Source: Candidatus Latescibacterota bacterium
GTDB taxonomy: Bacteria; Latescibacterota; UBA2968; GCA-2709665
Direction: 5' to 3'
Length of the DNA stretch: 64,000 bases
Assembly: GCA_965222075.1 (NCBI GenBank)
Contig: OZ244937.1
Location: 3,104,001 to 3,168,000 of the forward strand
The notes beneath the pieces are model-generated. The model was not told where the DNA came from. It searched no databases and was given only the letters and a program-made list of their open reading frames with translations. The position numbers and the translations under genes were made by a program. Positions 3,844-33,600 of the stretch are shown here, in pieces (positions within the stretch are counted from its first letter, which is position 1; every line of letters begins with the position of its first letter).

Positions 3844-6306
3844 ATGTCCGAAACCGCTGAAAAGCCCAAAACCGTCCGCCTCAGCCTCCCCATCTCCGGC
3901 ATGTCCTGCGCCGCATGCGCCTCCCGCATCGAAAAGGGCCTGCAGGAGGTCCCCGGCGTGGCCGAGGCAGTCGTCAACTTCGGCGTGGAGCAGGCCACAG
4001 TCGCCTACGATCCGAAGCGGGTCGGCGTCGAACAGCTCGCCGAAAAGATCGGCGTCCTCGGCTACGATGTCCGGGGGGATGAGGTCACCCTCTCGGTGAA
4101 AGGCATGTCCTGCGCCGCATGCGTCTCCCGTGTGGAATATGCCCTAAGAGCGATCCCCGGCGTCATCAAGGCGAATGTTAACTTTGCCACCCACCAGGCA
4201 ACCGTCCGCTACCTCAACATCGACGTGGACGCCCTGAAGCAGTCCGTGGCCGACGCCGGCTATGAGGCATCGATGGTTGAGGAAGAGCAGGTATCGGAAG
4301 ATCGGGAACGGGCCGACCGCCGGGCCGAATACCGGGCCGTTCGCCTCCGCTTCGTCGTGGGCGGCGTCCTCTCTGCCCTCATCATGGGTGTCGGCATGGT
4401 CCATACCCTCCTGGGCGTTGACCTCCCCACGCGGGAGATCCACCTCCTCCTCTTCCTGCTTGCAACCCCCGTCCAGTTCTGGTGCGGATGGCGGTTCCTG
4501 AAAGGCTTCCAGACCGCGCTTTGGCATGCCACGGCCGACATGAACAGCCTCATCGCCGTGGGCACCCTCGCCGCCTACGGCTACAGCACAGCCCTCACCT
4601 TTGCGCCCCGCGCCGTTGCCGAAGTCGGCCAGGCCCTGCACGTCTACTTCGACACCTCGGCCATGATAATCACCCTCATTCTCCTTGGCCGGATGCTGGA
4701 GGCCAGGGCTAAGGGGCGCACCTCCGACGCCATCCGCAAACTGATGGACCTCCGCCCCCAGACCGCCCGCCTCATCCGGGATGACCAGACCCTTGTGGTC
4801 CCCGTTGAAGAAGTCGCCGTGGGAGACCTCCTCCGCGTCCGCCCGGGAGAAAAAATTCCCGTGGACGGCGCCCTCTACCAGGGCCGTTCCACAGTGGACG
4901 AATCGATGGTCACCGGCGAGAGCATCCCCGTGAAAAAAGGCCCCAACAGCCAGGTCACCGGCGGCACCCTTAACAAAACCGGAACCTTCACCTTTCGGGC
5001 CACCCAGGTCGGGTCGGAAACCGTCCTGGCCCGCATCGTCCAGATGGTCCGGCAGGCCCAGGGGTCCCGTGCCCCCATCCAGCGCCTCGCCGACCGGGTT
5101 GCGGGCATCTTCGTGCCCATCGTCTTCGGCATCGCCCTCCTCACCTTCCTTCTCTGGTACACCCTCGGCCCGCAGCCCCCGCTTGCTGCGGGCCTCCTCA
5201 ACGCCGTCGCCGTCCTCATCATCGCCTGCCCCTGCGCAATGGGCCTGGCCACCCCCACCGCCATCATGGTCGGCACCGGCCGGGGCGCCGAATTCGGCGT
5301 CCTCATTAAAGGGGGCGACGTCCTGGAAACCGCCTGCCGGCTCGACACGGTCGTCTTAGACAAAACCGGCACCCTCACCACCGGCGCGCCCGCCGTCACC
5401 GACCTCATCCCCGCCGACGGCTTCAGCGAAAAGGACCTGCTTGTGCTGGCCGCCTCGGCCGAACAGGCCTCGGAGCACCCCCTCGGTGAGGCCATCCTCA
5501 AAGCGGCGGGCGAACAAAACCTCTCCCTGCGGGAGGCGCAGGCATTCGAAGCCTTCCCCGGAGAGGGCATCGCCGCAGAAATCGCAGGGGTCACCCTACT
5601 CCTGGGCAACCGGCGGCTGATGGAAAATCAGGAAGTTCTTCTGGACGGATGGGCAGGACAGGCAAAGCGGCTTGAAAGAGAAGGAAAAACCACCGTATTC
5701 ATCGCAGCCGACGGCCGGCCGGCGGGGCTTATCGGCATCGCCGACACCCTCAAGCCGGGGGCCGCAGACGCAGTGGCCGACCTCCACGGCCTGGGCCTGA
5801 AAGTCGCCCTGGTCACCGGCGACAACGCCCGAACCGCAGAGGCGGTCGCCCGGATCGTCGGCATCGACCGGGTGCTGTCCGAAGTCATGCCGGAAGGGAA
5901 AGCCGACCGGATCGCGGAGCTTCAGGCCGGGCGAAAAGGGGTCGGCATGGTAGGCGATGGCATCAACGACGCCCCCGCCTTAGCCCGGGCCGACGTCGGC
6001 ATCGCCATCGGCACCGGCGCAGACATCGCCAAAGAAAGCGCAGACATCACCCTCATCTCCGGAGATCTGAGCGGCATCGGCGCGGCGGTGCGGCTCTCTA
6101 AGAAGACCATGCGAGTCATTCGCCAGAACCTCTTCTGGGCATTTGCCTACAACACCCTCCTCATCCCCATCGCCGCTGTGGGCCTTCTCAACCCCCTTGG
6201 CGGCCCCATGCTCGCAGCGGCGGCCATGGCCTTCAGCTCCGTCTCCGTCCTCTCCAACTCCCTCCGGCTGCGGCGGTTCGATCCAACTCAGCGCCGGTTC
6301 GCATAA
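3844..6306 (+). CDS. copA: Cu(I)-translocating P1B-type ATPase
   Basis: Two GMSCAAC HMA domains, [25 protein letters not shown], and YN and MxxSS transmembrane ligands. Confidence 0.93.
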
Positions 6307-7409
6307 TTCAAAATCCCCTTCACAATCCGTTCGGCGCTCCGCTGCCGGTTCTTGTGAAACCGCAGCCTGTAGGCCTCGCCCCTGTCGTGCATATTGTGGA
6401 CCTCAACCAAGATCTCGGCATACGCCCGGTTGTTCCGGAGCACCCCCAAGTTGCGCCCCATGATCTGTGCGGGGAGATCGGGATGGTGCAGGGCCTTCTG
6501 CATCACCTGCGCGAACTTTCGGGAACGTTTATCGACCTTCCCCCTCCGGTTCAAATAGATCGCCAGCGGTCCCTTGGGCCGCCCCGGGCTGTTGTCTGCA
6601 TGCAGCGAAACAAAAAGGCTCTTCCCCTTCCGGGCGCCCTTGAAATGCCGGTTGGCAATCCTGACCCGTTGTAAGAGATTGTTCCCGCCGGGACGGACGG
6701 AGCCCGAACGCCTCTGGTTCCTCTTCGCGTCGTTGTAAACCTCGTTCTGCTCGTGCACGAAGGTCACGCTCGCCCGGAAGTTGTCGCGTATGAGGTGGTT
6801 GGGGCTGATCACCGTCAGCTCCACCTCCGCGCCCTTCAGCCGCAGAAGTTCGTATACCCGCAGCGCAATATCGTAGACATACTCGTCCTCAACCACGTAG
6901 ACCGAACGCTCCACCCCGTCCTTATTCGATACAATCGCCCCCGGATCGATGCCCCCATGCCCGGGATCAACCACCACCTTCCAGCCCTTCAGCGGCAGCC
7001 GCCTGCCCCGGTTTTGGGCCAGCCTGGCACGGATCTCTGCGTCGAACGCCTGCAATAGCGCACGGGCGTTCTGGTAATCCTTGATCGGTCGAAACCGGGA
7101 AGGCTCGATATACTTCCGGCTCTGCTGTGCAGCCACCCTCGGTTTATAAAAATAATAAGGACCGTTCTCGGCCTTTATCTCCTTGAGCCTGGGCCCCAAA
7201 CGCAGCACCTGTCCCGGATAGACCCGGTCGCTCCGGAGCCGGTTGAGCCGCTTGATCTCCTTTACGCTCACCTGGAACAGGCGGGCAATCGACCAGAGGG
7301 AATCCCCCTTCCGGACCTCGTACGTCAGAGAAAGCCCAAGCGGCTCCCCCAGGGTAAACAGGACCAGAAAAAGCCCGACACAGACCTGGAAAATGCGGTG
7401 TAAGGTCAT
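6288..7409 (-). CDS. LysM-domain N-acetylmuramoyl-L-alanine amidase (Amidase_3)
   Basis: Signal or anchor helix, LysM ([13 protein letters not shown]...VYPGQVL), [23 protein letters not shown]. Confidence 0.85.
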
Positions 7410-7477
7410 AGATTTAAAAACTGAAGGAGGATAAATTTTGGGGGGATTTGGCCTTGTGGTTGACCACAGCCGCGGAA

Positions 7478-7536
7478 CCCCGGGTACAAACGGTGCAGCA
7501 CCCGAACGCATGATGCCTCTGAGTTCGCAGTCGTGG
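7478..7536 (-). repeat. copy A of a dispersed non-coding element (homolog at 41129-41188)
   Basis: Manual alignment gives 43/60 identical columns with copy B. Lies in the amidase 5' region. Confidence 0.6.
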
Positions 7537-7662
7537 CCAATCGTCTTCAGGCGGCACCGAAGGGGCACGGTGCAAAGCCGGAAAAGACCCTTGAACATGC
7601 CAAAACATAGGGACTTTGGGGGAAAAAGGCAAGAGAAAGCGGCCAGACCGTATCCTGAACCG

Positions 7663-7704
7663 GTTGGTCCTTTTCACCGCTCAAGTTGGTGTTTTCCACC
7701 AACT
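7663..7704. promoter_or_regulatory. tandem palindromic enhancer (UAS) sites for a PspF-like activator
   Basis: Perfect AGTTGGTG-N5-CACCAACT (7684-7704) and a degenerate GTTGGTC-N5-CACCGCT 22 bp upstream, about 100-140 bp before a sigma54 promoter. Confidence 0.7.
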
Positions 7705-7799
7705 CTCTCATTTAAACGAGCTTGAACGAGCCCAATTTTCTTCTACATAAGTCTTATAAGAACAATTTCTTATATAAATATCTCCTGTTCATCAAAAAC

Positions 7800-7816
7800 C
7801 CGGCACGCCCCTTGCA
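7800..7816 (+). promoter_or_regulatory. sigma54 (-24/-12) promoter of the pspA operon
   Basis: CCGGCACGCCCCTTGCA gives GG(7802-03)-N10-GC(7814-15). Preceded by an AT-rich, IHF-like tract at about 7735-7785. Confidence 0.85.
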
Positions 7817-7874: not shown

Positions 7875-8552
7875 ATGGCCAAAGGAATCTTTTCAAGAAT
7901 GGCGGACATCATCAAAGCCAACATCAACGACCTCCTGAATCGGGCGGAAGACCCGGAAAAGATGATCCGCCAGATGATCCTCGAAATGGAGGAGGCCGTC
8001 AACAAGGCGACCGCGTCCGTCGGCACCGCCGTGGCCAACGAGAAGCGGCTGGAGCGCCAGTGCCTCGAGAAAAAGGACCAGATCAAGGCCTGGCAGAAAA
8101 AGGCCGAACTCGCCGTCCAGGACGGAGAAGACGACCTGGCCCGGCGGGCGCTGGAACGGAAAGCGGCCCTGGAAGAGGCCGCCAAAGACTTGAGCGCCGC
8201 CCTCGACGAAAGCCAGCGGACCTCCAAACAGCTCAAACAGCAGCTCATGCAGCTCAAGGCCAAACTGGACGAAGCCCGCACCCGCCAGGGCGCCCTCATC
8301 GCCCGGCGCAAAGCCGCAGAAGCCCGCAAGCAGATCGCCAAAGGCCTCTCCGGCGTGGGTGACGATGCCTTCTCCAGCTTCGAGCGGTTCCGCCAGCGGG
8401 TTGAAACCGAAGAGGCCGAAGCCGAAGCCCACCAGGAAATCGCCGGTTCCGAGCCTTCGCTGGAAGACGCCTTCACCAAACTCGAACGGAAGAGCACGGT
8501 GGAAGAGGAACTTGAAGTCCTCAAGAAAAAACTGGGCCGGACCGATGCGTGA
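7875..8552 (+). CDS. pspA: phage shock protein A (PspA/IM30, ESCRT-III superfamily)
   Basis: MAKGIFSRMADIIKANINDLLNRAEDPEKM N-terminus, GEDDLARRALERK, coiled coils, GAGGAG RBS. Confidence 0.95.
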   Translation: MAKGIFSRMADIIKANINDLLNRAEDPEKMIRQMILEMEEAVNKATASVGTAVANEKRLERQCLEKKDQIKAWQKKAELAVQDGEDDLARRALERKAALEEAAKDLSAALDESQRTSKQLKQQLMQLKAKLDEARTRQGALIARRKAAEARKQIAKGLSGVGDDAFSSFERFRQRVETEEAEAEAHQEIAGSEPSLEDAFTKLERKSTVEEELEVLKKKLGRTDA

Positions 8553-8762
8553 CGTCCAGAAAATCTTAGACGAAATCGCCTGCTCAAACTCGCCCGGGAA
8601 AAGGGCGGCAGCCTCACCGTCCTCGAAGCCGCCACCGATGCCCGCATGACCGTAGAAAAGGCCGAGGAGATCCTCCGAGAACTGGCCGCCCGGGGCCACG
8701 CCGAGGTCCGCGTCTCCGAGTCGGGCCTCATCGTCTACTACTTCCCGGTGCACGAACTCTGA
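8545..8762 (+). CDS. small winged-helix protein with a broken reading frame (frameshift or readthrough needed)
   Basis: Frame 8553-8762 encodes ...RLLKLAREKGGSLTVLEAATDARMTVEKAEEILRELAARGHAEVRVSESGLIVYYFPVHEL*. ATG 8545 (MRDVQKILDEI) joins it only with a -1 shift. Not in the ORF track. Confidence 0.6.
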
Positions 8763-8781: not shown

Positions 8782-8991
8782 ATGATCGAAGTCGGATTTG
8801 GAGTTGCGCTGATCATCCTCGCTGTTGCGATCCTCAAATACGTGGAGCGACGCTACAAAGGCGCCATCCCCAGCGATGCCGAAGAACGGCTCATGGCCCG
8901 AATGGCCGAACTCGAACGACGCCTCACAGACATCCAGGACGTCATGATCACCATCGACGAAAAAATGAGCAGGAGCAATCCGGAGGAATGA
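8782..8991 (+). CDS. PspB-like single-TM coiled-coil protein
   Basis: GGAGG RBS, N-terminal TM, C-terminal RMAELERRLTDIQDVMITIDEK coiled coil, downstream of pspA. Confidence 0.75.
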   Translation: MIEVGFGVALIILAVAILKYVERRYKGAIPSDAEERLMARMAELERRLTDIQDVMITIDEKMSRSNPEE

Positions 8992-9117
8992 TCTTCAGTG
9001 ACGCCGAAAAACGGCTCATTGGCCTGGATAGACGAACTCGAACGCATGCTCACAGACATCCAGGACGTCATGATCACCATCGACAATAAAATGAGCAGGC
9101 CCAAAGTGGAAATTTAA
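8988..9117 (+). pseudogene. partial tandem duplicate of the PspB-like gene (coiled coil only, 1-bp insertion)
   Basis: 8997-9099 repeats 8872-8973, with ATG GCC changed to ATTG GCC. A TTG-started 32-aa peptide (9019-9117) is possible. Confidence 0.65.
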
Positions 9118-9150
9118 ACCGTTCACCCAAACCCACAGGGAGGAAAATAA

Positions 9151-9408
9151 ATGATAGGCTGGATCCTGGAACTGATGATCGGCTTCTCTCTGATCATCGT
9201 CGTAAGCGGAACAGTAAGCTACGTTCACCTGAGGCTGAAACGCGCCTCGAAGGGAGTGAATCCGGACCGGGCCAAGCGGATGGAAGCCCGGCTGGACACC
9301 CTGGAACAGAGGTTGACCGATATTCAGGACATTATCATCGCCATCGACGAGAAGCTGAACCGGGCAGACTACCGACCGCCATCTCCGGTCCAAACAGACA
9401 AAGGATAA
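9151..9408 (+). CDS. PspB-like single-TM coiled-coil protein, paralog
   Basis: GGAGG RBS, TM helix, LEQRLTDIQDIIIAIDEKL matching 8782-8991. Confidence 0.75.
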   Translation: MIGWILELMIGFSLIIVVSGTVSYVHLRLKRASKGVNPDRAKRMEARLDTLEQRLTDIQDIIIAIDEKLNRADYRPPSPVQTDKG

Positions 9409-9412
9409 CGCC

Positions 9413-9592
9413 ATGCTCTCCAAAATCCTCGGCATCATCTTGATCGTCATCGGGGGTTCCCTGGCCCTCGGTGTCCTGTTTCAACTGATCGGCTCAATTG
9501 TCGGACTGCTCTGGGCCATGATCAAACTGGCCATACCGCTGGTCCTCCTCTACGTCGGCTACCGGCTGCTCACACGGGAACCGGATTATTAA
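9413..9592 (+). CDS. 59-aa two-TM membrane protein (PspG/LiaI-like)
   Basis: MLSKILGIILIVIGGSLALGVLFQLIGSIVGLLWAMIKLAIPLVLLYVGYRLLTREPDY*, with AAGGA RBS. Fills the operon gap and is below the ORF-track cutoff. Confidence 0.75.
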   Translation: MLSKILGIILIVIGGSLALGVLFQLIGSIVGLLWAMIKLAIPLVLLYVGYRLLTREPDY

Positions 9593-9604: not shown

Positions 9605-10186
9605 ATGCCACAAACAGAAGACCGCGTCCTGATCCGTCGGGTGCTGGCGGGAGATCACTCAGCTTTTGACACCCTCTACAAGACCCACCATCCACAGGTC
9701 TACGCCATGATCGCCCGTCGCGTCTCCGACAGAGACCTCACAGAAGACCTGGTCCAGACCACCTTCCTGCGCGCCTTCCGTTCCCTTAACACCTACCGGG
9801 GCGACGCGGCCTTCTCCACCTGGCTGACTCAGATCGCCTTAAACGTCTTCAAATCTCACCTCCGGGCGCAGCGGGTGCGGCAGACCTGGGTACACGAAAC
9901 CGAAGACCCCGAACGGGCGACCGGAATCGACCGGGAGCCGGCCCCCTGTGAAAATCCCGAACAGGTGATGCAGCAGAAAGAACGCCGAAAACTCGTCATA
10001 CAGGGCATCCGGTCTCTGCCTGCGCGTTACCGCAAAGCGGTCTGGCTGCGCTACATCAAGGACTGGTCCTACGAAGAAATCACGCAGGCGCTCCAGGTGC
10101 CGATGGGCACGGTCAAAACCCGGCTCTGCCGGGGGCGCCGGCAGTTGAAAGGGGAATTTCGCAAACTGGGCCTCCAGGCAGTATAG
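9605..10186 (+). CDS. ECF RNA polymerase sigma factor
   Basis: EDLVQTTFLRAFRSL, FSTWLTQIALN, SYEEI...PMGTVKTRLCRGR (regions 2 and 4). Confidence 0.92.
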   Translation: MPQTEDRVLIRRVLAGDHSAFDTLYKTHHPQVYAMIARRVSDRDLTEDLVQTTFLRAFRSLNTYRGDAAFSTWLTQIALNVFKSHLRAQRVRQTWVHETEDPERATGIDREPAPCENPEQVMQQKERRKLVIQGIRSLPARYRKAVWLRYIKDWSYEEITQALQVPMGTVKTRLCRGRRQLKGEFRKLGLQAV

Positions 10187-10199
10187 CGGTAGATAGACC

Positions 10200-10229
10200 T
10201 TGACAATCGGGCGGTATTATACATATCAT
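10200..10229 (+). promoter_or_regulatory. putative sigma70 promoter for nfeD-flotillin
   Basis: TTGACA-N18-TATCAT, followed by an AAGGAGG RBS. Confidence 0.5.
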
Positions 10230-10255: not shown

Positions 10256-10861
10256 ATGGAAGCCTGGTGGACAAACCTGACCACGTTGAACCAGATCCTC
10301 TACCTCGTGGCGATCTTTTTCAGCACGCTCTTCGCCTGGCAGTTTGCGGCGGCCCTGCTCGGCCTGGGAGGGGGCGCCGATGTGGGCGGGGGCGACGCGA
10401 CCGCAGGGGATGCCGGACCGGAGATCGACGACATGGTCCAGGACGCAAGCGTGGCCGCCTTCAAACTCCTGTCGGTCCGTTCCATCATCGCATTTGGCAT
10501 GCTCTTCGGCTGGGCCGGCGCGCTCTACCTCCAGTCGGGCACCGAGGTGGAAAGCGCGCTCCTCTACAGCCTGGTCTGGGGGGCCGCCGCGATGGTCGCC
10601 GTGGCCTATTTTTACCACGGCATTCAGCAGCTCACCGAGACCGGCAACCCCAAGCTGGAGACCTGCGTCGGCGCGTCGGGTGAGGTCTACATCGACATCC
10701 CCGAAAACGGGATCGGGCAGATCCGCGTGGTGGAAAGCGGCGCGGTCTCCTACGTATCCGCCCGGGGGAAAAACGGCGCCCCGATCCCGAACAAGACTCC
10801 GGTATGGGTACGGCGGGTAATCGATGGGACCACGCTCGAGGTCGAACAAATCGAACCCTGA
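10256..10861 (+). CDS. NfeD-like (YuaF/YqiJ-type) membrane protein with C-terminal OB fold
   Basis: Three TM segments, VGASGEVYIDIPENGIGQI OB-fold, directly upstream of flotillin. Confidence 0.85.
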   Translation: MEAWWTNLTTLNQILYLVAIFFSTLFAWQFAAALLGLGGGADVGGGDATAGDAGPEIDDMVQDASVAAFKLLSVRSIIAFGMLFGWAGALYLQSGTEVESALLYSLVWGAAAMVAVAYFYHGIQQLTETGNPKLETCVGASGEVYIDIPENGIGQIRVVESGAVSYVSARGKNGAPIPNKTPVWVRRVIDGTTLEVEQIEP

Positions 10862-10897: not shown

Positions 10898-12442
10898 ATG
10901 CCAAATCCGATGATCCTGACGATGATTTTAGTCGCGGTCGTGTTTCTGCTGTTCCTGACCTTCATCTCCAGGTACAAGCGCTGCCCGTCCAACAATATCC
11001 TGGTGATCTACGGCAAAACAGGGAGTGGTGCGGCCAAGTGCGTGCACGGAGGCGCGGCCTTCGTCCTGCCCCTGTTGCAGGACTACAAATACCTGGACTT
11101 GGAGCCGTTCGTCGTGCCCATCGACTTAGACAATGCGCTCTCCCAGGAAAACATCCGGGTGTCCGTGCCCACAACGGTCACTGCCGCCGTCTCGAACCAG
11201 CAGGGCATCATGCAAAACGCCGCGGTCCGCCTCCTGGGCCTGTCGCACGACCAGATCCAGAGCCAGGCGCAGGACATCATCCTGGGCCAGATGCGGGCCG
11301 TGATTGCAACAATGGAGATCGAAGAGATCAACCAGGACCGGCAGGCCTTTATGGGCAAGGTCAACGAGGCGGTCTCCACCGAGATGGAAAAAATCGGTCT
11401 GGCCGTGATCAACGTGAACATCAAAGACATCGAGGACGAAAGCGGATATATCAAAGCCCTCGGCCAGAAAGCGGCGGCCGAAGCAATCAACCAGGCGGCC
11501 ATCGACGTGGCCGAGCAGGAGAAAATGGGCAAGGTGGGGGTGGCCGAGCGGGAAAGGGACCAGCGCACGGATGTGGCCGCTGCGAACGCGGCCGCTGAAA
11601 TCGGTGAATCCCAGGCCGCCCGGGACCGGCGTCAGAGGGTCGCCGCCCTCGAATCCGAAGCCGAAATCGGTGAATCCCAGGCCGCCCGGGACCGGCGCCA
11701 GAGTGTCTCCTCTCTGGATGCGGAAGCGGTCCAGGCCGAGGCCGAGGCCGAATCCAAGAAGGCCGGCTACATGGCCCAGCAGAGGGTGGCCGAGGAGGTT
11801 GCCCGGCAAAAAGGGCAGGAGGCCGCAAAGGCCGCAGACGGCGCCATCCGGGTCGCGCAGGAACGGGCGGAGAAAGAGGCCGAGGAAGCCCGGGCGCTGC
11901 GCGAAGAAGCGCGTCTGAAAGCCGAAATCGTCGTACACGCCGAAGCGGAAAAACAGAAGCTGGTGGTACAGTCCGAGGCCGAGAAAACGCAGAAAACCCT
12001 GGTGGCAGAAGGGGAGGCCGCCGCCATCCTGGCCCAGAAGCAAGCCGAAGCCCAGGGCACGCAGGCCATCCTGGATGCGAAGGCCGAAGGTTACAGAGAG
12101 CTGGTGGCCGCATGCGGCGGAAAAGATCAGGCTGCCGCAGCCTTCCTCATCATCGAGCGGCTCACCGAGGTGGCGGGCATCCAGGCCGAGGCCATTCAGA
12201 ACCTGCCTTTGGAGAAGGTGATGGTCTGGGACGGCGGCAATGAACAGGGCGGCCTGTCCAACCTGGGCCAGCGCCTGATGGGCACCATCCCCCCGATGCA
12301 CGATCTGGCCCGGCTGGCCGGCCTGGAGCTCCCTGAATTCCTCGGCAGAATGACGGGAAGCAGCGAGCAGCAGACGCACACGTCCGACAGCGGCGGTGGC
12401 GGTACAGCGGAGGCGGGGGGCCAGACCGGGCCGTCCACTTAA
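10898..12442 (+). CDS. flotillin-family SPFH protein (FloT/YqiK-like)
   Basis: N-terminal TM, RYKRCPSNNILVIYG, SPFH domain, AEA-rich flotillin coiled coil, IPPMHDL tail. Confidence 0.92.
   Translation: MPNPMILTMILVAVVFLLFLTFISRYKRCPSNNILVIYGKTGSGAAKCVHGGAAFVLPLLQDYKYLDLEPFVVPIDLDNALSQENIRVSVPTTVTAAVSNQQGIMQNAAVRLLGLSHDQIQSQAQDIILGQMRAVIATMEIEEINQDRQAFMGKVNEAVSTEMEKIGLAVINVNIKDIEDESGYIKALGQKAAAEAINQAAIDVAEQEKMGKVGVAERERDQRTDVAAANAAAEIGESQAARDRRQRVAALESEAEIGESQAARDRRQSVSSLDAEAVQAEAEAESKKAGYMAQQRVAEEVARQKGQEAAKAADGAIRVAQERAEKEAEEARALREEARLKAEIVVHAEAEKQKLVVQSEAEKTQKTLVAEGEAAAILAQKQAEAQGTQAILDAKAEGYRELVAACGGKDQAAAAFLIIERLTEVAGIQAEAIQNLPLEKVMVWDGGNEQGGLSNLGQRLMGTIPPMHDLARLAGLELPEFLGRMTGSSEQQTHTSDSGGGGTAEAGGQTGPST
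11597..11728 (+). repeat. 66-bp in-frame tandem duplication within flotillin
   Basis: EIGESQAARDRRQRVAALESEA followed by EIGESQAARDRRQSVSSLDAEA. Confidence 0.85.
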
Positions 12443-12447
12443 AAGGG

Positions 12448-13815
12448 GTGATTCCTTTGGAAAAAACCCGGGTCCAGGACGCCGACCTCTGCTTCAAAAC
12501 CGGCCTGCGTGCCCTCAAACAGGATAAAAGGGCGGAGGCCCGGCAGGCCTTCGAGGGCGCTGTCGAGCTGCACCCGGACCATCTCAACGCCCGGTTCCAA
12601 CTCGCCCTCCTCTACGCCCGGGGCGGCGCGCCCGGTTCTGCGGGCCGGCAGAAAGCCGTAGCGGCCCTGCAGCACATCCTCGGCGTTGCCGGCCGGGGCG
12701 TGCCCTGTGCGAACCTGGACCGGGTCTGCTTCCTGTTGGGCAGCTTTCTGGACGACACACCCGAAAACCGGGGGAAGGCCATCGCAATCTACCGTCGGGG
12801 GCTCGACGCAGACCCCCTCTTTGCCCCGGGGCACAACAACCTGGGTGTCCTGCTGATGCAATCGGGCCAGACCATCCCGGCCCTGGGCGCCTTTAAAATC
12901 GCCCTCCACTTGGAGCCCGATTACACCCTCCCCTACCAGAACCTGGCCCGCCTCCTCTTCGACCACATGAGCCCTGCCCAGATGGAGCGGGAATACACCT
13001 CCATCATCGAAGAATTTGGCGTTCAGGCACCCCTGGTCCTCTCCAGGCTCTCCCTCGAACTCATCGATCTGGGCCGGGCGCAGGTCTATGAGAGCCTCTA
13101 CACCCGGGGCCACCAGATCAAGAACCTCATGGGCGTGGTCGGCAGCCGGATGCGCCGGCTGATCCGAGAATCGTCGCCCGATGAGAAAGGCCTCGACGAC
13201 CTCAAAGACATTGCCCGCGAACAGGAACGGGTCTACGACCAGTGGGTCGCCTACCTCCGCTCTATGAAACAGCACCCCATGAACCCCACGCTGGTGGAGA
13301 TCCCCCAGCTGGTCCGGAAAGCAAGCGAAAAGGTCGTCACCCGGAAAGGAAGAAAGACCCTCCGCTTCGCATCAGAAGCCCATGTTCCCCAGGTCAAGGC
13401 AGACCCCGGCATGCTCCGCGAGGCTGTCACCAACCTCATCCTCAACGCCCTCGAAGCCGTCGGAGAGGATGGAAAGGTCACCCTTCAGACCGGCTACGAT
13501 CCCAAACGCGCCTCGGTCTACGTCGAAGTGGAGGACAACGGCCCGGGTATCTCCAAACCCCTCCAGGTCCGGATCTTCGACCCCGGATACTCCACCAAAG
13601 AAAAGGGGAACGGCTACGGCCTCAGCATCTGCGCCCGGATCGTCTCGGCCCACCGCGGTAACCTCCGGGTAATGAGCCGGCCCGGCGCCGGCGCCGTCTT
13701 TCGGATTGACCTGCCGGTCGACTTCGAACTCGCCTCCGAAGAGGAGAGCATCGGCCTCCAGGGCGCCCCGCTGCAAACCGCGCGTCACCCCCTCGCCGAG
13801 GAGTTCATCAAGTGA
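12448..13815 (+). CDS. soluble TPR-repeat sensor histidine kinase
   Basis: TPR motifs (HNNLGVLL, PYQNLA), H-box GHQIKN, NLILNALEA, DNGPGI, FDPGYSTK, GNGYGL. No TM segment. Confidence 0.88.
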   Translation: MIPLEKTRVQDADLCFKTGLRALKQDKRAEARQAFEGAVELHPDHLNARFQLALLYARGGAPGSAGRQKAVAALQHILGVAGRGVPCANLDRVCFLLGSFLDDTPENRGKAIAIYRRGLDADPLFAPGHNNLGVLLMQSGQTIPALGAFKIALHLEPDYTLPYQNLARLLFDHMSPAQMEREYTSIIEEFGVQAPLVLSRLSLELIDLGRAQVYESLYTRGHQIKNLMGVVGSRMRRLIRESSPDEKGLDDLKDIAREQERVYDQWVAYLRSMKQHPMNPTLVEIPQLVRKASEKVVTRKGRKTLRFASEAHVPQVKADPGMLREAVTNLILNALEAVGEDGKVTLQTGYDPKRASVYVEVEDNGPGISKPLQVRIFDPGYSTKEKGNGYGLSICARIVSAHRGNLRVMSRPGAGAVFRIDLPVDFELASEEESIGLQGAPLQTARHPLAEEFIK

Positions 13816-15218
13816 AGGCGCACATCCTCATCGCCGACGACCAGCCCGAAATCCTGGACATGCTCACCCGCAGCCTCCAGGCCGACGGCCGGACCGTTCA
13901 GGCCTTTCCCTCCAGCGCCAACGCGCTTGGCTATCTGCAAAAACACGCCCCGGCAGTCGACATGGCCATCCTCGACCTCGACTTTGGCCCCGGCGAACCC
14001 GACGGCCTGGAAACCCTCCGGCAGATGCGGCAAGAAGCGCCCGACCTGCCCGTAATCATCCTTACCGGCAAAGGCACCGTGGAAACCGCCGTAGCTGCCC
14101 TGCGCCTGGGCGCGGCCGACTTCATTGAAAAAGACTTCTACATCGAAGACAGGCTTGAACTCAGCCTGGAAAAACTCGACCGGATGCTCTCTGTCCTCCG
14201 GGAAAATGCCCGGCTGCGGGCCGAAGTGGACGACCTCGACCGGGAAAACCGGTTCTACCGGGCCGAATTCGGAAAGCGCTACCAGGTCATCAGCGTCAGT
14301 CCCCAGATGCAGCAGATCATGCAGCAGGCCGAGCGCATCGCCTCCATCCCCCGCCCCGTCCTCATCCTGGGCGAACGGGGCACCGGCAAAGAACTGGTGG
14401 CCGCCGCGGTCCACTACGGGGGCGTGCGCAAAGACCGCCCCTTTGTCAAAGTCAACTGCGCGGCCCTCTCCGCCACCCTCTTGGAAAGCGAACTCTTCGG
14501 GCACGAAAAAGGGGCCTTCACCGGTGCGGTCGAGGCCCGCCCGGGCCGGTTCGAGGCCGCCAACGGGGGCACCCTCTTCTTAGACGAAATCGCCAGCACC
14601 ACCCCCGAGTTTCAGCAGAACATCCTGCGCGCCATCGAATACCAGGAAGTACAGCGGGTCGGCGCTGCCGCGCCGGTACCGGTGGACGTGCGCATCATCG
14701 CCGCTACGAATGCCGACCTCGAACGGGAAATGGCCGAAGGCCGCTTCCGGGAGGACCTCTACGACCGCCTCCGGTTCGAAATCATCCGCATCCCCCCCCT
14801 CCGGCAGCGCCGGGAAGACATCCAGCCCTTAGCAGAGTTTTTCGCCGAACAGATCCTCCAGGAAGTCCCCGGCCTTGTACGCCGTCCCTTTTCAAACGCC
14901 GCCACAAAACGGCTGCTCGCTTACGGCTGGCCGGGCAACGTGCGCGACCTCAAATTCGCCGTGGAGCGGGCCGCCTGCATGGTCGCCGGCCCCGCCATCG
15001 AACCCGACGACCTGCCTCCCGAAATCGCCTCGGGCGCATTCGAACCCTCCGGTGAGGGATTTGAAGCGCAGACGAGGGCCTTTGAACTGGGCTTGCTCCG
15101 CCAGGCCCTGCACGCCACCGCCTGGAACCAGCGGCAGGCCGCCGCCCAATTGAAACTCAGCTACGACCAGTTCCGCCACCGCTACCGGAAATACGACCTG
15201 GACCGGGAAAAGCCGTAG
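13812..15218 (+). CDS. sigma54-dependent response regulator, REC fused to PspF-like AAA+/HTH
   Basis: REC (IADD, ILDL, IEK), [44 protein letters not shown] overlap with the kinase. Confidence 0.92.
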
Positions 15219-15247: not shown

Positions 15248-15279
15248 GGCCCGAGCATTCGGGCCATTTTATTGTTTTT
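15248..15279 (+). terminator. intrinsic terminator ending the Psp/two-component locus
   Basis: GGCCCGA-GCAT-TCGGGCC hairpin followed by ATTTTATTGTTTTT. Confidence 0.7.
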
Positions 15280-30631: not shown

Positions 30632-33600
30632 GTGTCAACCACACCCAGCGCACCAGACGCACTCATTGTTTCCGGCGACGACCGTGTTCAGAAAATTCTG
30701 GCGCAGGAAGATGCCGTTGTTGTGCCCGCCTATGCGTTTTTCCTGGATGGTTTCGTGAAAGATACGTTTACCGAATATGCCAATCCCTCGATCTACCGTC
30801 CGCCATCGGTTTGCAGCGCCCGCCTGGTGAGTACCCTGCGGGATATGTACCAGTTTAAAGAGACCGGCACATACTATTTCGGCTTTACGATGTATGCCGA
30901 CGCCGGATATGACGAGCCGGTTGAGGTCTGGGTCGGCCACGAACAGGTTGCGCTGGCCCGGCATCCCGACCCGGATAATCGGGTGCATCTTTTTGTGGCG
31001 CCCAAACCAATTGGTTTTCAGGGCGGTGAGCTCAAACGCCTGATCACCGGGAAAACAGACGGTCCGTGTCGGATTGAAAATGTGGTTCTTCTCAAGAAAC
31101 GACCCCGGCCGACGCCGCCCGAATTGACCGTTCTTTCCCCCCATGTGGACGTCCGCCACGATAACGGCAAAGCCTGTGCCTATATTACGTGGATGACCAG
31201 CCGGCCCGCGTCGGGACGGTTGCGCTGGGGCAGCGGCAAGAGGCTGTCCAGGACCGTTGAGATGGCCGGTCCGCTGGCCAACCACGAAGTGGTTCTGGAA
31301 GGTCTGGACCTGAACAAGTCGTACCGGTTTGAGCTGGATCTGACCGGGCGTGTGGAGGGGCTCAAAGCTGCATATGCCGGAGTGTTCAAGACGGATCTTA
31401 CAGCGCCTTCAAGCCGGGTGAAAAAGGGGCGCGTTCCGATTCGGCTGCGTCGACCCGGCAATGGGCTGTGGCCGGTTTCTGTGGGTGTGCCCTTTCCAAA
31501 AGGTGCGCTGGGCAGCGAGGATGAGATTCGGCTGGTGGATAAGCGTGGGGCAGAGGTGGGACTTCAGGCGCGCAGTCTTGCGCGGTGGGAGGATGGCTCG
31601 GTGCGCTGGGCGCTGCTGGATTTTCAGGCGGACGGAAAGCATGAGTATACCGCTGAATACGGCAGTGAGGTTTCCCGTTCTGTGCCTGGTGATAGGCTGG
31701 AGGTGTCGGAGTCGGAGACGTCGGTTGTGGTGACGACCGGGCCGCTGCGCGTGGAATTTCCGAAGGGCCGGGTGGTATTTCCGGGTGTGGTGTGGGTGAA
31801 ACGGACAGACGGGTCGTATCGCAAGCTATCGGGACCCTCTGCCGGGGTGCGTCTGACCGGGGCCGATGGATCGGTGTATGGATCGGGCAAGCCGGAGGCG
31901 GTGGTGGTGGAAGAGGCCGGTTCTGAGCGGGTGTGCGTGCGTGTGGAGGCGGTCCACCGGCTGCGCAGCCGGTCGTTGTTCCACTCGATTTTGCGCGTGC
32001 ATCTATTCCGGGGCAGCGGGGCGATCCGGGTGCTGCACACGTTTGAGAATGACCGTGTGGAGGAGATGTTTACCTGCATCCGGGAATTGAGCCTGCGGTC
32101 GGACTTCAAGGTGGGAGGCGCTTTGCAGGGCCGGGTGGGCCGGCGCCGGGTGGAGGGACTCAAGGCTGGGGGGGTGGTACTGCACCAGGGACTGGACAAC
32201 CGGTATGTTGTGAGACGGGGAGGGGCGGAGATCGCGAGAGGGCGCCGTGCGGAGGGCAGTGTGGCGTTGCGTGGGGATAGGGGCGGTGTGAGCCTGGTGG
32301 TGCGGGATTTCTGGCAGAATTATCCAAAGGGTGTGGCGGTGGATGAGAAGGGGATAACGGTGGGGATCTGTCCGGCGCTGGATGAGGCGGATTATCCGCG
32401 TGGAGGGGAACTGGAGGATCGGTTGTATTATTATTTGCTGGATGGGGTGTATAAGTTCAAGGCGGGGGTTTCCCGTACGCACGAGATGTGGTTTCACATT
32501 CGGTCAAAAGGCGATGCGCCAGAGGGTTTTGCGGCGTCGGTGCAGCGTCCGCCGCTGTATGGTATGTCGCTTGCAGCGTTCAATAAAAGCCGGGCGCTTA
32601 CCCGGCTGCCCGAAAAAGAAAAATCTCCGTTTCCGCCGTATGAAACGTGGGTTGAGACCGTACGCGGCGTTTATGCCGAAGATCGAGAGAAATCCCGCGC
32701 TTATGGGATGCTCAATTACGGGGATTGGTTCGGAGAGCGCGTTTATAACTGGGGGAATATGGAGTATGATACGCCCTGGTGTTTTTTGCAGGAGTATCTC
32801 AGGGGGGGGCATTCGGATTTTTATACCTGGGCCGAGGAGGCTGCGCGACATCTTGTGGATGTGGATACCGTCCACCATACCGACGAGCCCGACAATTTGG
32901 GGTCGCAGTATATTCACTCCGTCGGCCACGTGGGCAATTATTATCCCGATGGGTACCGGGAGCGCGCCATTTTCGCCGGCCGCTGGAGTGTTTCCCATAC
33001 CTGGGTGGAAGGTCTTTTTCTTTACCATCTTCTCACGGGCGATGCCAGGGCTCTGGAAAGCGCAATGCAGACGAGCAATTTGCTGGTTGGGAATATGCTC
33101 AACGACTATGATTTCACGAACTGTCGCAATTGCGGGTGGCACCTGATTCATCTGGCCGCCGCGTACAAAGCCACCGGCCGACGCGTGTATCTGAATGCCG
33201 CCCGTACGATCGTGGATCGCGTGCTGGAGCGGCAAAAGCCCTCCGGCGGATGGGAACGGCTTATGGTTCCCGGACACTGTTTCTGTTATCCGCTCCGGCA
33301 TATGGGCAATGCCGGGTTTATGGTTGGCGTGTTGATGGCGGGGTTGCGTCGGTTCTACGAAGCGACGGGTGAAAAACGCGTTCGAGATGCGATTGTCCAT
33401 GCCGCTACGTTTTGCATCGATGATATGTGGGTGCCCGAAAACCGGGCGTTCCGGTACACGTCGTGTCCCAAATCTTCGGTGGGGCGGTCCGCCGATATGG
33501 CCATTCTCAAAGGAATTGCTTTTGCCTACGATGTTTCCGGGAATGAACGGCTGAGGGAGGTTCTTTTCGAGGGGGTCCGGTCCGCTATGGCCCAGCGGGA

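Follow-up and report, generated by a model that had tools for sequence, protein, structure and literature searches.

Among sigma54 activators, PspF is the textbook example of one that lacks a regulatory domain. The E. coli protein binds PspA through residues Y51, L52 and W56, and the substitutions Y51C, L52C and W56C each escape inhibition (PMC3791423); W56 substitutions are likewise reported to free PspF from PspA (PMC6003685). Enterobacteria are not alone in having canonical PspF that lacks an N-terminal domain (PMC4641369), and PspF-like proteins outside that group are described as hard to assign (PMC9239133). In other bacteria a two-component pair lies in or beside a pspA-type operon, as in Bacillus LiaFSR-LiaIH and the actinobacterial PspA/PspC-kinase systems, and these contexts are reported to use membrane kinases with REC-wHTH regulators (PMC11237479, PMC9239133). 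Here we analyse an operon within a 64-kb stretch of DNA from a Candidatus Latescibacterota bacterium (contig OZ244937.1, positions 3,104,001 to 3,168,000; hereafter the window), in which pspA shares a gene run with a soluble TPR kinase-fold sensor and a REC-AAA+-HTH activator. We consider it likely that this activator of pspA belongs to the PspF clade, is gated by phosphorylation and is not directly inhibited by PspA, a judgement that does not extend to the ligand of the sensor. The locus would then be a variant Psp system, with the Psp membrane-stress regulon under a two-component pair, that is conserved across a phylum-level lineage and apparently undescribed.

Conservation of the locus was examined with a kinase profile built from 50 homologs and run on a species-level genome set; the best 80 of 111 loci were analysed (related genome loci are labelled L0xx below, and distant PspF-like database proteins P0xxx). 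By title, 65 of the 80 are Latescibacterota, 11 carry Gemmatimonad names and one is from Planctomycetota. The activator gene directly follows the kinase gene in 79/80 loci and pspA lies upstream in 76/80, all misses being contig ends. The gene for a two-transmembrane (two-TM) winged-helix protein was detected in 77/80. A second subgroup (~46% kinase identity) retains only pspA, the small membrane genes and the sensor-activator pair. Judged from these gene contents, the operon core is pspA, the two-TM winged-helix gene, the sensor and the activator. PspA itself is unusually conserved, at 77-93% to the window protein in the near subgroup. In 15 loci inspected gene by gene, the coiled-coil tail proteins were absent from three and the 59-aa gene from three, and pspA was kept in all.

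The activator combines two familiar types of part. Pfam places Response_reg at aa 5-112, Sigma54_activat at 160-322 and HTH_8 at 423-461, and the earlier note was right that a receiver precedes the AAA+ domain; its phospho-site, D55, is intact. Response_reg is present in 79/80 family activators; D9, D10, D55 and T85 are invariant in 79/80 receivers and K107 in 80/80. A MAFFT alignment had put the phospho-Asp at D57, an assignment rejected on a REC-only alignment, which gives D55; both residues are invariant. The activators have an intact Walker A/B, GAFTGA/GAYTGA and arginine-finger region, at least 16 of 80 with the GAYTGA variant. The PspF-like signatures named in the earlier note are present in the translation (GERGTGKE 14370-14393, LRAIEY 14625-14642, ATNADL 14703-14720, DLYDRLRFE 14754-14780 and the HTH 15126-15176), and they hold for the window protein; as a family trait GERGT does not, since 42/80 loci read GEPGT. 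The HTH resembles that of PspF, not those of NtrC or AtoC. In NCBIfam the top model is PspF TIGR02974 at 344 bits, short of its cutoff of 443.55, followed by AtoC (339) and NtrC (338). Raw AAA+ identity is 48.4% to E. coli PspF, 49.2% to AtoC and 49.6% to ZraR. This identity is no higher to PspF; the case for a PspF link is made by diagnostic residues, the HMM ranking and the trees. Read from these features, the activator is PspF-like in its output and NtrC-like in its input, and falls outside canonical PspF membership.

The residues by which PspA docks onto E. coli PspF are mostly changed. By alignment with that protein, the W56 equivalent is Lys207 at 14430-14432, as the earlier note had read it. 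That note treated W56 as the PspA-binding position; the Trp is indeed lost, but the docking patch comprises Y51, L52 and W56, and Y51 is retained. Across the 80 loci L52 is replaced by Gly in 75 and Trp is found at position 56 in none, the W56 position being Lys or Arg; Trp is equally missing from the 119 readable sequences among 120 database homologs. The loss of L52 and W56 suggests that direct inhibition of the activator by PspA is probably absent, against which the retained Tyr and a reported second site are weighed below.

To place the activator among its relatives, its AAA+/HTH part was searched against 50%-cluster representatives, which yielded canonical PspF and PspF-like proteins, the latter mostly with a receiver. 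Canonical PspF was identified by TIGR02974 (of 43 non-E. coli proteins scanned, 8 exceeded the cutoff). Before the trees were built we removed any protein with at least two AAA+ stretches or an aligned length under 215 residues, and kept only 12 members of the family; 138 rows remained, and subsets of 56, 42, 30 and 28 rows followed. In the 138-row tree a 41-row branch (support 99) held E. coli PspF, ten W56-bearing relatives, the Latescibacterota family and 18 other proteins lacking W56. The wider PspF clade had support of 99/94 with all columns, in a tree whose bootstrap had not fully settled, and of 99/95 with the W56 loop excluded. The activator's AAA+ domain therefore groups with PspF rather than with NtrC or AtoC, as the earlier note had proposed. 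Within the clade, the canonical W56-bearing subclade and the Latescibacterota family each had support of 100/99, and the branching order among groups was unsupported: a basal split between canonical and REC-bearing groups reached a weak 89/88 with all columns and was not settled without the W56 loop. In approximately unbiased (AU) tests with that loop excluded, nesting of the family in either canonical subclade was rejected (p 0.024 each), as was its placement with NtrC/AtoC/ZraR (p 0.0001); its placement as sister of all canonical PspF was not (p 0.48). In a tree of receivers only, 20 PspF-like receivers formed one side against 42 others (SH-aLRT, a likelihood-ratio branch test, 94, the branch not being starred). 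An extended loop behind the phospho-Asp is common to most of them; several are decayed, with the acidic pair or the phospho-Asp lost, among P0257, P0261, P0266, P0272, P0273 and P0282. One REC-bearing branch has relatives named Kofleriaceae, Myxococcales and Deltaproteobacteria, which indicates that the REC-PspF architecture spans phyla. A plasmid search gave only generic activators, at ~40% identity, among the best 15 of 754 matches.

These trees bear on how the system arose. The earlier note held that a canonical, PspA-inhibited PspF had acquired a receiver and lost W56. That history looks unlikely to us: nesting in the canonical subclades is rejected, the 20 PspF-like receivers form one lineage, and mapped on the tree W56 changes once, on the canonical branch only, while possession of the N-terminal domain changes three times, readable as three losses. 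What speaks for it is the weakness of the basal split and the sister position that the AU test leaves standing, with which a REC-less ancestor costs one extra step; PspA plus PspF has also been proposed as the ancestral core (PMC3041696). Two complete-looking proteins, P0275 and P0283, have neither REC nor W56 and may be intermediates of such a path or represent other control modes. The simplest history has a REC-bearing ancestor, with REC loss and W56 gain on the canonical branch, and we lean towards it with moderate confidence, because the margin is only one step. The receivers of the REC-bearing PspF relatives, some of them named Myxococcota, belong to a single lineage, so control by phosphorylation may be the ancestral state. 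This would offer a testable route by which PspA trans-inhibition evolved from receiver cis control. A bolder version, to which we give only tentative credence, is that the PspF lineage began phosphorylation-controlled, that the E. coli form is a derived short-circuit, and that the older circuit survives in Latescibacterota and perhaps in some Myxococcota; there, a soluble TPR sensor whose catalytic acid has been swapped would read how PspA or its membrane recruiters are assembled. If true, a bacterial ESCRT-III-like protein would be the direct two-component input, and the accepted history of PspF would possibly be reversed.

The output side of the circuit was assessed in 75 complete pspA upstream regions, the window included, with 600 shuffles and 600 random windows from the same loci as controls. 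A sigma54 -24/-12 site was found in 75/75 regions compared to 2/600 shuffles and 15/600 random windows. Paired boxes at 21-22 bp spacing with up to four mismatches were found in 74/75 compared to 1/600 and 15/600; as the box consensus was composed with the sites of the window and of E. coli already in view, and as the loci are related, the box and promoter controls show non-randomness rather than independence, which the counts overstate. The proximal box centre lies 83-99 bp 5' of the GG in 73/75 regions, in two classes about one helical turn apart, and 108 bp 5' of it in the window. The spacer between enhancer and promoter has a mean AT content of 0.75, compared to 0.43 for the loci, and is richer in 75/75. 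The same search on the E. coli pspA promoter returned a box pair 20 bp apart and 74 bp from the GG, which we take to be the footprinted sites of PspF. In the window, 7665-7701 is the sole box pair. From these patterns it is very likely that the activator drives the sigma54 promoter of pspA through PspF-like boxes. A relaxed sigma54 pattern has three more matches in the window, at 32561 (+), 31180 (-) and 60779 (-), none with a box pair.

The sensor was described in the earlier note as carrying TPRs and no transmembrane segment, and this agrees with our analysis: it has TPRs and HATPase_c, and its best 19-residue hydropathy is 1.17. Hydropathy stays below 1.6 in 79/81 kinases, the exceptions being one apparently over-extended N-terminus and one stretch in the CA region, and 4/120 database homologs reach that value. 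In the predicted model (pLDDT 86.9), residues 4-173 form TPR helices and residues 176-241 a long helix that bears His222; a second DHp helix and a CA domain are also present. Its top Foldseek structures are ZraS and HK853, the best NCBIfam match is AtoS, and an ESM Atlas search with the TPR-DHp part gave no usable match. The number of N-terminal TPRs varies among homologs, and conservation climbs toward the kinase-proximal TPR (0.39 to 0.81), peaking at the last repeat and the linker. His222, the N-box residues Asn329 and Asn333 and the G boxes are invariant or nearly so, N329 fully. The earlier note overlooked the H-box, which reads H-(R/Q)-(I/L)-K-N in 81/81 kinases, with Gln or Arg at H+1 and Asn at H+4. 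Acid is nevertheless found elsewhere: at N-box -8, eight residues before the second N-box Asn, it is present in 80/81 kinases (79 Glu, 1 Asp, 1 unread), a position that is Gln in three of four E. coli HisKA kinases (NtrB, AtoS, ZraS). HWE/HisKA2 kinases have a Glu in the N-box (PMC12148442), which Glu325 of the sensor recalls but does not match. The non-acidic H+1 in an H-(R/Q)-x-K-N box is shared with HWE/HisKA2 kinases, DrBphP and BumS, which are often soluble. Unlike HWE/HisKA2 proteins, the sensor keeps the first N-box Asn and has its Glu one turn earlier, and its fold and similarity are those of HisKA proteins such as ZraS and AtoS. By its motifs the sensor is either a non-canonical kinase or mainly a phosphatase, and an H-box without an H+1 acid weakens the case for a net kinase role. 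We favour, with some reserve, the view that Glu325 is a swapped base and that the protein functions as a net kinase. The H-box is in either case a natural test of the H+1 acid rule.

We propose the following circuit. The sensor would set the phosphorylation state of Asp55, and the phosphorylated activator would oligomerise on the boxes and open the pspA promoter. Besides pspA, the transcript would cover the genes of the small membrane proteins and, where the locus is compact, probably those of the sensor and activator as well. Kinase activity would probably be preserved through the N-box helix acid Glu325, replacing the missing H+1 acid. With no membrane segment, the sensor would have to read a cytoplasm-facing partner through its kinase-proximal TPRs. 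Our best guess is that free PspA holds the sensor in an off/phosphatase state and that relocation of PspA to the damaged membrane releases it, so that the feedback logic of E. coli would be kept with a kinase interposed. To judge from PspA-PspF and LiaF-LiaS, a brake of this kind would be needed in an operon coding for its own activator. PspA is the sole operon product intact in every locus inspected and is favoured as input by exclusion, so we name it, tentatively, as the leading candidate; an input from outside this set is possible, and the two-TM winged-helix protein and the tail proteins are each rather unlikely. Complex prediction for TPR(1-215) with PspA(1-150), the L043 winged-helix domain and the tail of the protein encoded at 9151 gave a call of 'no answer' (0.00, 0.00; mark 0.32), which speaks neither for nor against these partners, in a four-chain job unlike the calibration of the tool.

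Several observations count against a phosphorylation-gated activator freed from direct control by PspA. Y51, the primary PspA docking residue (PMC3791423), is retained in 76/80 loci, and a second PspF site, for PspA's C-terminal domain, has been reported (PMC6003685). One activator frame of the 80, in L040, lacks a REC start. In HisKA proteins the H+1 acid is needed for autophosphorylation and an H+4 Asn or Thr for phosphatase activity, and loss of the acid impairs the kinase (PMC8292422); H+1 is Gln, Arg or Lys in 120/120 database homologs of the sensor, so that the acid expected of HisKA is missing and, together with the H+4 Asn, a phosphatase bias is indicated. The post hoc box consensus and the kinship of the loci belong here as well, and accessory genes absent from a locus might sit elsewhere in the same genome. 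The H-box is the starting point for the most serious alternative, which we regard as possible though doubtful: the TPR protein would have little or no autokinase activity and would strip phosphate from an activator loaded by acetyl phosphate or another kinase, stress turning the phosphatase off, as in BumS- or DrBphP-like proteins. An H+1 that is never acidic beside an H+4 that is always Asn (81/81) is the phosphatase-competent, kinase-impaired HisKA pattern (PMC8292422), and phosphatase-only sensors exist (PMC12469816). However, His222, the N-box Asn residues and the G boxes are conserved, the N-box Asn that DrBphP has lost is kept, and the family-wide acid at N-box -8 could serve as base, as may be compared with the N-box Glu of HWE/HisKA2 (PMC12148442). 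The output would be identical to that of the circuit proposed above; the chemistry alone differs.

The retained Tyr could also mean dual control, in which phosphorylation activates and PspA still damps the activator directly through this residue or a second site. Among nine other E. coli activators only AtoC has Tyr at this position, which together with the unusual conservation of PspA and the reported second site (PMC6003685) lends the idea some weight. Against this, L52 has become Gly and W56 Lys or Arg, single changes at either of which suffice for escape in E. coli (PMC3791423), and the REC-bearing relatives mostly lack the Tyr (10/115 have it); we regard dual control as improbable. Least probable by far is that an ordinary NtrC-type pair lies by chance beside the psp operon and regulates something else. 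The sub-cutoff TIGR02974 score, close to those of AtoC and NtrC, and a raw identity no higher to PspF would fit such a pair. Its linkage to pspA in 76/80 loci persists where compact loci hold little besides pspA, the small genes and the pair, the HTH and boxes are of PspF type, and the tree rejects kinship with NtrC, AtoC or ZraR. A phosphorylation-gated PspF-clade activator remains the reading we prefer.

Set beside the described systems, the operon is assembled from familiar parts. It resembles E. coli and proteobacterial PspF-PspA (TIGR02974, PRK11608) in its AAA+ clade, the LRxIEY, ATNADL and DLxDRL motifs, the HTH recognition helix, the paired enhancer boxes, AT-rich spacer and sigma54 promoter before pspA, and the small transmembrane coiled-coil genes after it. 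In contrast to E. coli PspF, the activator has a receiver and a cognate sensor, has lost L52 and W56, scores below the TIGR02974 cutoff and has an AAA+ domain outside the W56-bearing subclade; the regulator genes stand at the operon end on the same strand rather than divergently, and no PspC domain was found. With NtrC, AtoC and ZraR it shares the REC-AAA+-HTH architecture, the phospho-site residues, GAFTGA, Walker A/B and an adjacent DHp-CA gene, but the AAA+/HTH is of PspF type, the receiver loop after the phospho-Asp is distinct, and the soluble, TPR-bearing sensor has a non-canonical H-box. Whereas the Lia and actinobacterial systems have membrane-bound kinases and REC-HTH regulators without AAA+, a soluble sensor is paired here with a sigma54 enhancer-binding ATPase, so that the combination links the designs of PspF and Lia. 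In the open-licence papers and preprints searched we found neither a REC-PspF nor a TPR-kinase Psp system, though such contexts could be listed in the web application of PMC11237479 or the external data of PMC9239133. The available part of a 2025 review mentions PspF in its PspA-released form only (PMC7619361), and a large Psp survey omitted PspF and two-component systems from detailed analysis (PMC11237479). As a small soluble system that would be simple to rebuild in E. coli, it could be used to ask what it is that a cell detects when its membrane is damaged.

The features of the operon are collected in Table 1. On one strand the gene run comprises pspA, the broken winged-helix gene, the small transmembrane genes, an extracytoplasmic function (ECF) sigma gene, the NfeD-like, flotillin and TPR kinase genes and the activator, whose gene overlaps that of the kinase (13812 versus 13815).

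Table 1. Features of the pspA operon and its regulatory region in the window (TM, transmembrane).
Feature	Coordinates	Strand	Remarks
Distal enhancer box, TGGYG-N5-CRCCA type, predicted activator site	7665..7679		Paired-box search
Proximal enhancer box	7687..7701		22 bp from distal box
AT-rich tract between enhancer and promoter, probable IHF bending site	7742..7782		Best match has 2 mismatches to what we take to be the IHF consensus
sigma54 -24/-12 promoter of pspA	7800..7816	+	Conserved pattern
pspA (PspA/IM30, bacterial ESCRT-III-like effector)	7875..8552	+	PF04012 E 2e-46; 76/80 loci
Two-TM plus winged-helix gene remnant	8545..8762	+	Frameshifting deletion of ~250 bp near 8576
Small single-TM protein, conserved coiled-coil tail (PspB-like architecture)	8782..8991	+	
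Tail-protein gene duplicate, truncated	8996..9118	+	86.5% identity with 8871-8973
Second single-TM coiled-coil-tail protein	9151..9408	+	
59-aa two-TM protein, family without assignment	9413..9592	+	
ECF sigma factor, accessory	9605..10186	+	46/80 loci
NfeD-like membrane protein, accessory	10256..10861	+	Weak Pfam match E 0.062; 36/80 loci
Flotillin/SPFH protein, accessory	10898..12442	+	36/80 loci
Soluble TPR-DHp-CA sensor	12448..13815	+	His222 in GHQIKNL 13108-13128; N-box Glu325, Asn329, Asn333 13420-13449; G boxes intact
REC-AAA+-HTH sigma54 activator, wider PspF clade	13812..15218	+	D9, D10, D55 (13974-13976), T85, K107, GAFTGA intact; Lys207 at W56 position
Terminator-like hairpin 3' of activator gene	15248..15265	+	Consensus match only

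The two-TM winged-helix gene is the most constant neighbour of pspA; it has no Pfam name and is intact at L043:717-1223. Of the 78 loci with a match only the window has it broken; in the other 77 the frame upstream of the domain is open. Clusters of similar appearance are found in Cyanobacteriota, Bacillota, Gemmatimonadota and Myxococcota. With a membrane-anchored winged helix encoded next to an ESCRT-III-like protein, an analogy with ESCRT-II suggests itself, for or against which the fold search does not speak: ESCRT-II scored Z 9.5, tied with Z-alpha, ArsR, Fur and MarR domains, and SNF8 was a weak profile match (E 0.12), so the ESCRT-II reading is not discriminated. The coiled-coil tail motif has 140 matches in 81 loci, 0-4 per locus with a strict pattern. 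It is joined to different transmembrane parts (window 8782-9408; L002:5492-6966; L022:5558-6651), as in a modular, expanding family that is deletion-prone between repeats; the N-terminus of the L002 protein is, we presume, TM2-like. A tail protein aligned to E. coli PspB with an hhalign probability of 31%, neither tail protein of the window matched PspB, and PspB was not among the 25 listed of 75 weak families. Homology of the tail proteins to PspC (probability 7%) and of the 59-aa protein to PspG (E 0.5) was rejected. Insertions in the small-gene array include a gene for a 787-aa signal-peptide protein (L043:1478-3841) and transposase-like sequence (L041:5764-8328).

The ECF sigma gene, which sits inside a sigma54 operon, usually lies directly 3' of the 59-aa two-TM gene; it has no obvious anti-sigma factor, and a second regulatory tier is possible. 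A sigma70-like promoter after it (10200-10229, 11/12 match) was rejected as not conserved, a comparable site being found after the ECF gene in 5/45 loci. The flotillin gene has an internal duplication of ~60 bp at 11580-11710, giving two copies of an Ala/Glu-rich repeat. Divergent from pspA lies a LysM plus Amidase_3 gene (6288-7598, -), syntenic in 41/80 loci, and beyond it a heavy-metal P-type ATPase-like gene (3847-6306, +), syntenic in 38/80.

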